Shown here: in pieces, positions 4,030 through 64,000 of the stretch
Layout: every line of letters begins with the position of its first letter
Position numbering within the stretch: the first letter of the stretch is position 1
Assembly (NCBI GenBank): GCA_016839555.1
Contig: JAEOUA010000011.1
Coordinates: forward strand, 32,001 to 96,000
Length of the DNA stretch: 64,000 bases
From: Promethearchaeota archaeon
GTDB taxonomy: Archaea > Asgardarchaeota > Lokiarchaeia > Sigyniarchaeales > SOKP01
Direction: 5' to 3'
Position numbers and translations under genes: made by a program
The notes under the pieces: model-generated
Database searches by the model: none
The model's input: the letters and a program-made list of their open reading frames with translations, nothing else
What the model was told of the DNA's origin: nothing

Positions 4030-4212
4030 ATGATAATGGTACGAGCAAGGGCATGTACAGGTTGTCGAGAATACGTTATAATCAAAGCAGATGATCCAGA
4101 AAATATAAACCTCTTGAAAGAATTCGAAGCTGAACATAGAGGGCATATGCTTATTACTCTAAATTTTGACGAAATTAAAGGAGCATACAGAAAATATAAA
4201 GGATCAGAATAA
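4030..4212 (+). CDS. Small putative zinc-binding protein (CxxC...HxxH)
   Basis: CTGC and HRGH motifs in 60 aa; GGTGA Shine-Dalgarno-like sequence before the start. Confidence 0.7.
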   Translation: MIMVRARACTGCREYVIIKADDPENINLLKEFEAEHRGHMLITLNFDEIKGAYRKYKGSE

Positions 4213-4578
4213 GACTAATTTTCGCAACCAATTATATCCATAAATTATTAGTTGCTTATAAAAAGGTAAAAAAATTAAAAAACATTTAATTATTGAATCC
4301 TTTCATCTTTATTTTTATTTTCATAATAATATTAATTATAATAGGGTTTGGAATTATTACTTATTCTAAGGGGAGATATCAGTTATTAACTCTTATTATA
4401 AATATAATCATCGTTAAATTACTCGTTTCATGAAGATGCATCTATATGATCAGAATATATACATATTACCTATATTCATAATTAGAATTCTAAGGGAAAT
4501 ATAAATATCATTAAGAATGTAAAATAATGAGTAAAATAACAACTGAATTTAATAAACGAAAGCGTAAAAAAAGTATCT

Positions 4579-4785
4579 CTAAGAAAGGACTTCTAAAATT
4601 TTAGTCAATATACGAGCCTTTCCTCCCGTAGATTGTAAGAGTGTTTTTCCACAGACTAAGCATTCGACATCGTGAGCTGCGCAGCCAAAAATAATTTGAT
4701 TATTACCGCAGTTTAAACATTTTACTCTTAAAAATCTGCTATTTGGATGTGGGATTAGCTTCTTAATTTTCTTTTTTTCTATCAT
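4579..4785 (-). CDS. rps27e: 30S ribosomal protein S27e (eS27)
   Basis: [13 protein letters not shown]...CLVCG...STGGKA zinc ribbon. Confidence 0.96.
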
Positions 4786-4944
4786 ATCTGATAATAAATT
4801 GTTGATTGCTTATAACTTATTTCTTAAAAATATTGGTAAAATAATAATTTTTTCATTTGGAAAGTAAGTATTATGTATTAATACAATTAACGCTAATTTT
4901 AAATGAGACCCAATTATTTTTAATTTTAATCGTTAAAATTATAT

Positions 4945-60984: not shown

Positions 60985-61701
60985 TCAAATTCTATCTTCA
61001 ATGGCAGTATTAAAAATTCTTTTCAAATCCTTATTGTAATATTTATTCTTTTTCCAATCTTGTTCGGTTAAAAAGAATTTTCCAAAGGGATTCAAGGTTT
61101 TTTCTTCACCGATGGTAGTTATACCGAGATGTCCTGCTAATATTAGAAAATTCTCCGAAAGTAAGGGATTATAGATAATTTTATTTTTAATATTACTAAA
61201 TAAAAGCTCTTGGTCTCCACCCAGAAGATTTGATCGTCCTATACTTCTTCTAAATATGAGATCTCCTGTAAAGATGATACCATCATAATTATTCCCCCTA
61301 AAAGTTCGAATATCATTAGAGTAAAGGCTAATTCCGCCCGGACTGTGTCCAGCTGTTTCTAAAACAGTTAATTTAAAATCTTTATTTCTTAGAACATCTC
61401 CTTCTTTTAACCATTGATCAGCTTTTTTAAAAATAATATGTTGAAATGCATGTTTATTGTAGAGAAGCGGGATATCAAAATAATTTTTAAGAAATTTATA
61501 TGCTCCAGTATGATCCGGATGTGCATGAGTCAGGATAATACCTATCGGGTGCGCATTTAAATCATCAATTGTTTTTATAATGAGATCTTCTTCGGCTCCA
61601 GGGTCTATTATGTATATCTCATTAGTATTTTTCGAACCAACTAAATAGCAATTACAACCATATGAGCCAACAATTAATTTTTCAAGAATATAGTGGGCCA
61701 T
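60985..61701 (-). CDS. MBL-fold metallo-hydrolase (glyoxalase II-like)
   Basis: NCYLV, IDPG, THAHPDH, GHSPG, FTGD and GH motifs. Confidence 0.9.
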   Translation of the reverse strand: MAHYILEKLIVGSYGCNCYLVGSKNTNEIYIIDPGAEEDLIIKTIDDLNAHPIGIILTHAHPDHTGAYKFLKNYFDIPLLYNKHAFQHIIFKKADQWLKEGDVLRNKDFKLTVLETAGHSPGGISLYSNDIRTFRGNNYDGIIFTGDLIFRRSIGRSNLLGGDQELLFSNIKNKIIYNPLLSENFLILAGHLGITTIGEEKTLNPFGKFFLTEQDWKKNKYYNKDLKRIFNTAIEDRI

Positions 61702-61750: not shown

Positions 61751-62695
61751 TTATAATATTTCTAAGATTGATTTTTTGGTAAAATGAATTTCTTTTTGGT
61801 TTGAATATTCATTTTCTTTTATAAAAACATTGAGAAGCTTTACAGCCATTCCTTTTTCGATTATCTTTAAAATATCAATTGCTTTCATATCCCATACATT
61901 TACTTCGATTGAACCTGTTTTGTCAGTTAATCCTAATTTTAGAAGAAACGATTTTTCACCATTATTTTTTGTAAATTCCTTTAATTCATAGCCGTTGATA
62001 AAGCCTGACGCAGATGTGATAAATCCGTCTGTCTTTAACAAATCCTTTATTTTTAGACTTACATTCTTCTTATTTTTATGTTGATATTGATATTCTGAGA
62101 GATCTAAATTCTCAATATTAACATCTTTAAGTTGGGAGCTAATCTTTTTAGGGATATCATCTGGCTCTAGAATAATTTTACTTTTTTTAGAAACATGGAC
62201 TTCAATTTTTTCATTTAATCCTATTTTTGAGTATCCATTGATAATACGTATGATTTTTCCTTTTGAAAAGAAATCTGATTTCATAATTTTGGATGGTTCA
62301 TTCCATAAAACAATTTTTATCATTCCAGTTGCATCAGCAAGTAAGAATGAACCCATAATTCCAGGAGTACCATCTTTTCTTACAAATTCTTTCAATGGAA
62401 ATATATCAATAATTTTTCCTAGTAGGACAAGATTCGTCATATTTTCTTTGATTTCAGCAATATCTATTAAAAACTCATTATAGTCAATTTCTTGTCCAAT
62501 TTCTTCATAAACCTCTTGATCTATATCAGGGGAAAGGATTTGGATTCCGTTTTCTTTAGCTATCAAAAATAATGCTCCTTGTTTGGTAATAAATCCGTGA
62601 AACTCTCGTTCTTTTTTTTCTATTTCTTCTTTTAACTCTTCTTCTGAAAAACCAATCTTTAATAAATAGTTATATACCTCTTGAATCTCGCTCAT
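61751..62695 (-). CDS. RPA-like ssDNA-binding protein (N-terminal helical domain + two OB folds)
   Basis: G.I...GALFLIAKE.G N-terminus; KEFVRKDG..G...LADATG.I..VLWN; KEF...G...LTDKTGSI.V.VWD. Confidence 0.85.
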   Translation of the reverse strand: MSEIQEVYNYLLKIGFSEEELKEEIEKKEREFHGFITKQGALFLIAKENGIQILSPDIDQEVYEEIGQEIDYNEFLIDIAEIKENMTNLVLLGKIIDIFPLKEFVRKDGTPGIMGSFLLADATGMIKIVLWNEPSKIMKSDFFSKGKIIRIINGYSKIGLNEKIEVHVSKKSKIILEPDDIPKKISSQLKDVNIENLDLSEYQYQHKNKKNVSLKIKDLLKTDGFITSASGFINGYELKEFTKNNGEKSFLLKLGLTDKTGSIEVNVWDMKAIDILKIIEKGMAVKLLNVFIKENEYSNQKEIHFTKKSILEIL

Positions 62696-63296
62696 TCTTA
62701 CTCAATACCCCTGTTTCAATCATTTTATTTTTAGTCTTATAAAAAGCATATGCGGAACAATTAGTAATAGCTCGAATATTTTCTACCAGGATTTTATTTT
62801 TGAAATGTGAATCATTTAAGTCTGTTATATATAATGTAAGTGCTAATTGGGTAGAGATTGTTGGCCAAAAATTTGCTTTAGTGAAAAAAACATGAAGGGA
62901 ATTGAGATTGATTTTAGCTCGATTATAATTAAAAAGCGGAGCAATCTTGTAAATCTTATGAAGATATACTTTCAATTTGTTATATAATAATGGTTTTCTA
63001 TGTTCCCAAGGAAATTTATATGATTTCAAAAAAGATGCATAAAAATACAAATTTCTAAGTGTTTTATTAATAATATTAGAAGTTAAAGGTTGGGAAATAG
63101 ATACTTTTTCTGAAATAGTAATTATTTTTTGAATTGGTAATGTTGATAATATATTTAAACTGCCTCGTGGAAAACAAATAGAGAAGTTTCTAAATAATAC
63201 ATTTAGAATGTTAGTTCTAATTTCTTTAAGACATAAATTATAGCTTAAAGGATTTGCAGTTTTATCTTTAAATATAACTGTAAAAGTATTTGCCAT
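62670..63296 (-). CDS. Hypothetical protein with a C-terminal TFB/cyclin-fold-like repeat
   Basis: P..STQLALTLYI.......ENIRAITNCSAYAFYK..NKM resembles the TFB repeat pattern P..AAAALYIA...Q.EIA....TEVTIRNRYKEL. Overlaps the RPA-like gene by 26 nt. Confidence 0.5.
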   Translation of the reverse strand: MANTFTVIFKDKTANPLSYNLCLKEIRTNILNVLFRNFSICFPRGSLNILSTLPIQKIITISEKVSISQPLTSNIINKTLRNLYFYASFLKSYKFPWEHRKPLLYNKLKVYLHKIYKIAPLFNYNRAKINLNSLHVFFTKANFWPTISTQLALTLYITDLNDSHFKNKILVENIRAITNCSAYAFYKTKNKMIETGVLSKNERDSRGI

Positions 63297-63343: not shown

Positions 63344-63362
63344 TCTATTTAAATAAAAAATG
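63344..63362 (-). promoter_or_regulatory. T-run + TATA promoter-like motif (variant copy 7)
   Basis: Minus strand CATTTTTTATTTAAATAGA; TATA starts at 63353, 57 nt before ATG 63296. The T-run could also be the FEN1 terminator. Confidence 0.4.
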
Positions 63363-63402: not shown

Positions 63403-63999
63403 TTAAAAGATCATATCTAAGGTCTTTTGGATAGTTTTTGGACGGTTTAATTCATATTGAAAATATTTTAAGGCGTTATAAAAGTTAGAAATCAAAATTT
63501 CGGTGTTCTTAGAAACTCTTTCCTTGTTTAAATTATGCTCTTTACATAATAAATAGAAGAGGCGCCTCTTATCAGGGGGATTCCAAAATATATCTTTGTC
63601 AAAAAAATCTAAGACTTCGGGTAAGAGAAATAATTTCCGAATTTTTAAAATTATTTTAGCATCAAGCTGAGAAAAATTATACTCGTCTTTTTTATGTTTA
63701 ATAATATTTTCCACATTTTCATATTGCTTTATTAGTTTCAATGCCGTCTTAGGACCAATATTTTTAATTCCTTCGAAGTAATCGGTTTTTAACAAAATTG
63801 CTAAATCAACTAGTTGAAATTGGTTTATATCCATTGTGGTTAAATTTTGCTGGAGATCAATAGCTAATGGGGTAATCTTCTGATATATCCATCGTCCCTG
63901 AATCTTCCTTCGCAAAGATTTTGAAAGGTTTTGTAATAGTTGAGGGCATCCGAACAATAAAGAATCAAAATCTTGGGAGTTGGAATAATCAGCAAAATT
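63403..63999 (-). CDS. fen1: Flap endonuclease 1 family protein (C-terminal part; runs off window end)
   Basis: SQDFDSLLFG.P.L..NL, LVDLAIL..TDY, GIKNIGPKTALKLI, and C-terminal PIP-like QKTLDMIF. Confidence 0.85.
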   Translation of the reverse strand, partial: NFADYSNSQDFDSLLFGCPQLLQNLSKSLRRKIQGRWIYQKITPLAIDLQQNLTTMDINQFQLVDLAILLKTDYFEGIKNIGPKTALKLIKQYENVENIIKHKKDEYNFSQLDAKIILKIRKLFLLPEVLDFFDKDIFWNPPDKRRLFYLLCKEHNLNKERVSKNTEILISNFYNALKYFQYELNRPKTIQKTLDMIF

Positions 64000-64000
64000 G

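Follow-up and report, generated by a model that had tools for sequence, protein, structure and literature searches.

The 64,000-nucleotide (nt) window analysed here (G000:C11:32001-96000, from a 3.74-Mb Lokiarchaeial assembly that is 92% complete) ends in four genes, all on the minus strand, that fill its last 3 kb. In the order of transcription these are the 3' part of a gene of the FEN1 family, a small orphan gene that we call X, an RPA-like gene and a gene for a metallo-beta-lactamase-fold hydrolase. X is the subject of this report. It is a real gene and represents a new, uncharacterised family of basic proteins with a predicted cyclin box of the TFB/TFIIB type, a known fold that is re-used here in an unusual replication/repair context in Asgard archaea.

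The open reading frame (ORF) that a first-pass annotation had described at this position proved to be a genuine gene, with relatives in many genomes. A word-indexed search retrieved 21 homologs of 190-208 amino acids (aa), and the closest named protein relatives come from metagenome-assembled genomes (MAGs) of Promethearchaeota (Loki-type Asgard archaea). With phmmer, run exhaustively against 1.8 billion representatives, we obtained 76 clusters, nearly all 160-210 aa long, and no match that reached beyond the X-like region. By family hidden Markov model (HMM), X occurs in 77 of 134 genomes of one Lokiarchaeial GTDB family, to which it is confined, and in 0 of 266 genomes elsewhere in the phylum. 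One homolog, P0014, is labelled as a "Patescibacteria group bacterium" MAG in NCBI; all other placed homologs are Lokiarchaeial, and the label is probably a binning error. Another, P0052 (392 aa), carries a ~220-residue N-terminal extension before its X-like part (match 223-381), which a fusion or a mis-called start could explain. Members of the family are uniformly strongly basic (isoelectric point (pI) 9.5-10.9), and conservation is concentrated in the C-terminal half, the N-terminal half being variable.

An AlphaFold2 model of X built with the family alignment (mean predicted local distance difference test score 86, predicted template-modelling score 0.82) has a helix-turn-helix (HTH)-like N-terminal domain, whose residues 1-22 form a low-confidence hairpin or helix, followed by a five-helix cyclin box (helices 101-118, 124-141, 147-160, 171-178 and 182-194). 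Residues Y111, L112, A119, P120, F122, Y124, A127, N130, W144, T149, Q150, T158 and D159 are invariant, as are N173, R175 and S181-F185; the most conserved stretch of the family is CSAYAFYK (residues 180-187), at the start of the last helix. In structural alignments the model is matched best by TFIIB, Brf and TFB. Other matches include ORC6, cyclins and Rb, with ORC6 and the cyclins scoring below TFIIB. The C-terminal ~100 aa had been read in the first-pass annotation as a TFB core repeat ending in the terminal HTH. The cyclin/TFIIB-like fold is borne out by the model, which assigns X to the cyclin-box fold of the TFB/TFIIB core type, but the identification with the terminal repeat is not: the aligner matches it to the first of the cyclin repeats of TFIIB/TFB, and not specifically on the terminal repeat that reads the TFB recognition element (BRE). 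A Foldseek search of the model against the PDB gave nothing at E<=0.001, the top rows being unrelated helical proteins, and against BFVD it gave weak rows only, several of them viral TFIIBs. ESM Atlas features of X point to HTH families at 0.88-0.90 with low shared-feature counts, and are to be taken as leads only. As to membership of the cyclins proper (PF00134/PF02984), X has no Cyclin_N signature and there is no cyclin-dependent kinase (CDK) partner in its neighbourhood.

Homology of X to TFB is undetectable by sequence or profile. X has no match at all in Pfam and NCBIfam, and PF00382 was unmatched at E<=10 in all 20 family members scanned, although the same model recovered all 20 repeats of the genome's 10 canonical TFBs. 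PF08271 was likewise unmatched and X has 3 Cys, none of them in CxxC pairs, in agreement with the earlier remark that an N-terminal Zn ribbon is missing. When the X family was compared by hhalign with the 10 canonical TFBs of the same genome and with their 20 separate repeats, the probability was 0.2-0.8%; with a family of 417-aa TFB-like proteins, one of which is encoded near X, it was 0.2-0.3%. As a control, the 417-aa family aligned to canonical TFB at 97.8% (E 9e-13). The family HMM was negative against the PDB in hmmsearch and matched only X itself among all ORFs of the genome. The N-terminal domain of X aligned weakly (probability 0.8%) with the last part of a TFB repeat, which was discarded as noise. 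That the TFB signal is gone in X, yet the divergent TFB nearby is still recognisable, suggests a changed function. Descent from TFB would be the most economical origin for the modelled fold, since to our knowledge the cyclin box is known in archaea only from TFB; most probably X arose from a TFB paralog, of which this lineage has many, and has lost TFB function.

The first-pass annotation had placed X behind a gene of the FEN1 family and in translational coupling with an RPA paralog. Operon linkage of X with these genes is supported, and the arrangement is widely kept: the order FEN1 paralog, X, short RPA occurs at 30 loci in about 10 genera. Co-occurrence was counted over 135 genomes; since these are related and many of them incomplete, the numbers serve for description only. 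Both X and the FEN1 paralog were found in 72 genomes and neither of them in 43, while 6 genomes have X without the paralog (mostly at contig ends) and 14 the paralog without X. For X and the short RPA, 57 genomes have both and 46 neither, 21 have X alone and 11 the RPA alone. At loci that lack the RPA gene, the genes 3' of X vary and the FEN1 paralog stays upstream of X. At loci that lack X (as in genomes G268, G271 and G243), the FEN1 paralog directly adjoins the short RPA. Four FEN1-paralog/X/short-RPA modules are present in a single assembly, G250 (contigs C12, C20, C23 and C52), where one of the FEN1 paralogs contains stop codons; the extra modules may reflect multiplication of the island or mixed strains, the estimated contamination being 9%.

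Table 1. Features at and near the X locus. Positions are those of the window, except for those with the prefix C11, which are positions on the contig.
Feature	Position	Strand	Description
Gene X	62670..63296	-	208-aa basic orphan protein, pI 10.0; based on ORF call, homologs and phyletic range
X N-terminal domain (residues 1-98)	63003..63296	-	Predicted three-helix HTH-like bundle, poorly conserved; first ~20 residues of low confidence
X C-terminal cyclin box (residues 97-208)	62673..63008	-	Predicted; nearly all invariant residues lie here
Overlap of X stop region and short RPA start	62670..62695	-	26 nt; GGGG 12-15 nt before the RPA ATG
Short RPA paralog	61751..62695	-	314 aa, acidic (pI 5.5); N-terminal helical DUF2240-like region and two OB folds
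Metallo-beta-lactamase-fold hydrolase	60985..61701	-	49 nt after RPA; also downstream in the closest relative
T-run + TATA promoter-like element TTTTTTATTTAAATA	63346..63360	-	49 nt upstream of the X ATG
FEN1 paralog, 3' part	63403..64000	-	Whole gene extends to C11:96500, 500 nt past the window end
417-aa divergent TFB	C11:104594-105847		8.6 kb past the window end; Zn-ribbon signature; hhalign match to canonical TFB

The gene upstream of X, on the same strand, matches TIGR03674 in its in-window part (1e-41) and was correctly recognised at the outset as a member of the FEN1 family. The whole 365-aa protein scores 267 bits, below the equivalog cut-off of 352 bits, and a canonical FEN1 scoring 429 bits is encoded elsewhere (C1:313297-314352); judged by these scores, the gene beside X is a paralog and not the canonical FEN1. 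In the paralog and its orthologs (C11:95403-96500; L010:2207-3304) the canonical motif PSEGEAQ reads ASAESQ, with Ser at the position of one catalytic Glu. Its C-terminus, QKTLDMIF, resembles a PCNA-binding PIP box.

Downstream, the RPA identity of the partner gene is given by the NCBIfam model "replication factor A" (1e-31) and by OB-fold Pfam families, and the short RPA is acidic throughout (pI 5.1-5.9). The reported overlap of X with this gene is present, and it would couple the translation of X and the short RPA. An overlap of 26 nt is limited to the closest relatives, the other genera having an 8-nt overlap or gaps of 24-90 nt. Besides the ~313-aa form, most relatives encode at another locus an RPA of ~575-590 aa with more OB folds and a Rep_fac-A_C domain, and on this ground the idea that X replaces missing domains of a sole RPA was rejected. 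In the 92%-complete source assembly the short form alone was found, with no long (~580-aa) RPA, and a search with PF00352 at E<=0.001 found no TBP gene there; both may lie in the missing ~8%. A prediction of the complex of X and the short RPA, from 15-row alignments of each chain, returned 0.00, which is no verdict and was counted neither way.

X lies inside an accessory recombination/DNA-exchange island that continues beyond the window end with genes for a RadA paralog, a RadB-like ATPase, Zn-ribbon proteins, a Hef-like helicase and the 417-aa divergent TFB. No integrase or replication-initiator gene was seen adjoining X. In many genomes the divergent TFB gene is on the same contig as X, at a distance of 10-15 kb, and it is the more widespread of the two (98/135 genomes, against 78/135 for X). 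The source genome has paralogs of it at C7:167326-168546 and C1:138808-140004, and a fourth at C11:280268-281212. In islands of genus g2 in which X was not found, a 232-aa TFB-like protein without a Zn ribbon is encoded behind a T-run promoter of the kind described below (L052, about 4120-4840, G149:C5:200156-200821; L056, G147:C35:110265-110927). It corresponds to residues ~91-311 of the 417-aa divergent TFB, and such forms indicate that truncated, core-only TFB derivatives do arise in this lineage, and repeatedly in this island.

The first-pass annotation had also seen, upstream of X, a variant of a motif shared with other genes of the region, and this element is conserved. In ~29/30 orthologous loci a T-run with TTTAWAWA 1-2 nt after it is present 60-80 nt upstream of X, although the flanking sequences have diverged. 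There are 52 gene-proximal T-run+TATA sites genome-wide, of which 16 fall within C11:84-145 kb (61 kb, 1.6% of the genome), a ~19-fold enrichment. Secondary sites occur on C7 (five, at ~147-181 kb) and on C1 (one, at 142 kb), each beside a paralog of the 417-aa TFB-like gene and with no X nearby. A T-run might be thought to be a mere oligo-T terminator of the FEN1 paralog. As the sole explanation this is unlikely, because the same element, with the same 1-2-nt spacing to the TATA, occurs in divergent intergenic regions; the site upstream of X itself may serve as a terminator. A palindrome between the TATA and the ATG, TAGATTCT-N6-AGAATCTA, was considered as an operator and rejected, being no better than in shuffled sequences (p=0.14), and the regions upstream of X at the 30 orthologous loci show neither enrichment nor conservation of any inverted repeat.

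On balance we suggest, with less than even confidence, that X is a DNA-binding accessory factor of the module formed by the FEN1 paralog and the short RPA. In this scheme X would be an optional first cistron in a transcription unit directly downstream of the FEN1 paralog gene, within the accessory recombination/DNA-exchange island, and expressed from the T-run promoter together with the short RPA and perhaps the hydrolase. Its product would be a basic, lineage-specific DNA-binding protein that combines a small bundle of HTH-like character with a single TFIIB-type cyclin box. It would bind duplex or branched DNA and, at intermediates of recombination or repair, recruit or position the acidic RPA paralog, the FEN1 paralog or both. 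This reading is favoured because the position of X between the two genes is persistent, because its translation is probably coupled to that of the RPA, because the TFB signal has been wholly lost, because X is always strongly basic and its RPA partner acidic, and because there are precedents in the RPA-RPAP operons of Haloferax and in ORC6. Several observations weigh against it. The nearest fold neighbours of X, including the weak viral Foldseek rows, are transcription factors, and the ESM Atlas features point weakly to HTH regulators. X is the first gene of its unit and has its own conserved promoter, a position frequent in autoregulators. It is dispensable in the islands of G268, G271 and G243, which keep both supposed partners, and 21 genomes have X and no short RPA.

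A close rival, which we regard as possible, is that X is a TFB-derived transcription modulator: a ribbon-less core that would bind TBP, promoter DNA or both without recruiting the polymerase. Whether as repressor, as anti-factor or as co-factor to the island TFB, it would tune the island promoters or its own operon. The fold neighbours and the place of X behind a T-run promoter of its own fit this, as does its pI of about 10. The last two helices form an HTH-like pair bearing the family's most conserved, basic motif, the N-terminal domain is HTH-like, and the ESM features, as leads, are nearest to HTH families. The lineage, moreover, possesses several divergent TFBs beside the 10 canonical ones, including the ribbon-less 232-aa forms of islands without X. 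On the other hand, X has a single canonical cyclin repeat, its profile similarity to TFB or to the TFB-like family of the island is undetectable (<1%), there is no conserved operator-like palindrome near its promoter, and no TBP gene was found by PF00352 in the source assembly. Nor would a modulator be expected to keep so persistent a place within the FEN1/RPA pair. The first-pass annotation had raised, beside an anti-factor role, the possibility that X itself is the reader of the T-rich element; X would then recognise the T-run as TFB does the BRE, and would thereby define a regulon. The element upstream of X, the location of X in the sole region with strong enrichment of the motif (16/52 sites) and its TFIIB-like, HTH-bearing fold would all suit such a role, which we nevertheless consider very improbable. 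In three islands in which the family HMM found no X (G149, G147 and G268, all from 100% complete genomes), T-run+TATA sites number 7-14 per 20-36 kb and precede genes of the same kinds as in islands with X; in G268 one of them occupies the place of X, after the FEN1 paralog and directly before the short RPA. X is therefore not needed for T-run promoters. The sites on C7 and C1 adjoin TFB-like paralogs and not X, and the full-length divergent TFB, which is also more widespread, would be a more economical reader. Recruitment of RNA polymerase by TFB needs its N-terminal parts, and X has no Zn ribbon, B-reader or B-linker. Finally, X might be a protein-protein adaptor, its cyclin box serving as a docking surface, or an ORC6- or cyclin-like replication-initiation factor of a mobile element, in either case unrelated to FEN1/RPA chemistry. 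We think this improbable, less so than the reading of the T-run by X. In its favour, X has a patchy distribution within one family and is lacking in several complete genomes, a single assembly has as many as four modules, Asgard mobile elements are known to encode TFB homologs (10.1101/2021.07.29.453957), and the structural matches include ORC6, cyclins and Rb. Against this, ORC6 and the cyclins score below TFIIB, neither an integrase nor an initiator gene adjoins X, the extra copies in G250 may come from mixed strains in a contaminated assembly, and no homolog of X was found in the viral contigs of IMG/VR, a search by which a viral origin of X was also discarded.

In eukaryotes the cyclin-box fold has given rise to proteins as different as cyclins, Rb, ORC6 and Brf/Rrn7. 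A stand-alone Asgard cyclin-box protein tied to FEN1 and RPA paralogs would show re-use of the fold outside transcription. If a TFIIB-type cyclin box has indeed left transcription in this Asgard lineage and become a dedicated partner of FEN1 and RPA paralogs, which we think less likely than not, a prokaryote would have done independently what eukaryotes did when the TFIIB/cyclin fold spread among them into ORC6, cyclins and Rb. X would also give a concrete handle on the working of a self-contained recombination island with private promoters. The reach of such conclusions is limited to one Lokiarchaeial family and to a predicted function. Since X is confined to that family, it is not an ancestor of the eukaryotic cyclin-box proteins.

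Among known systems, archaeal TFB and the eukaryotic TFIIB, Brf1 and Brf2 (PDB 1AIS, 5IY6, 3K1F, 8ITY, 4ROD) come closest to X in fold. They differ from it in having the N-terminal elements that X lacks (Zn ribbon, B-reader and B-linker), in a core of two cyclin repeats against one canonical repeat in X, and in context, which is transcription for TFB/TFIIB and FEN1/RPA genes for X. The 417-aa divergent TFB shares with X the island and the T-run promoter neighbourhood, but it has a Zn ribbon and clear TFB homology, and X shows neither. ORC6, the cyclins and the Rb pocket are more distant comparisons: they score below TFIIB and share no sequence signal with X, near which neither a CDK nor an ORC partner is encoded. 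TFB3 of the Sulfolobales, a truncated TFB paralog of the UV/DNA-exchange response which the first-pass annotation had invoked as a precedent, resembles X as a shortened member of the TFB fold that is tied to a DNA-damage or DNA-exchange gene set. The analogy is inverted, however, as TFB3 has retained its Zn ribbon but not the HTH/core (PMC6101591), whereas X has a core-like fold and no ribbon. X is thus the reverse truncation and could not use the TFB3 mechanism.

A parallel in gene organisation is found in Haloferax, where RPA paralogs are co-transcribed with dedicated RPA-associated proteins (RPAPs) that bind them, and with a phosphoesterase gene (PMC3376784). In Haloferax volcanii, RPAP1 and RPAP3 (COG3390) bind only their own RPA (PMC3376784). 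The RPAPs are OB-fold proteins encoded after RPA, whereas X is encoded before it and is all-helical in the model, and so does not belong to COG3390. The metallo-beta-lactamase-fold hydrolase gene that follows the short RPA recalls the phosphoesterase gene of the rpa1 operon. Like the rpa1-rpap1-rpe operon, the putative unit that contains X combines a small protein with a specific RPA paralog and a hydrolase.
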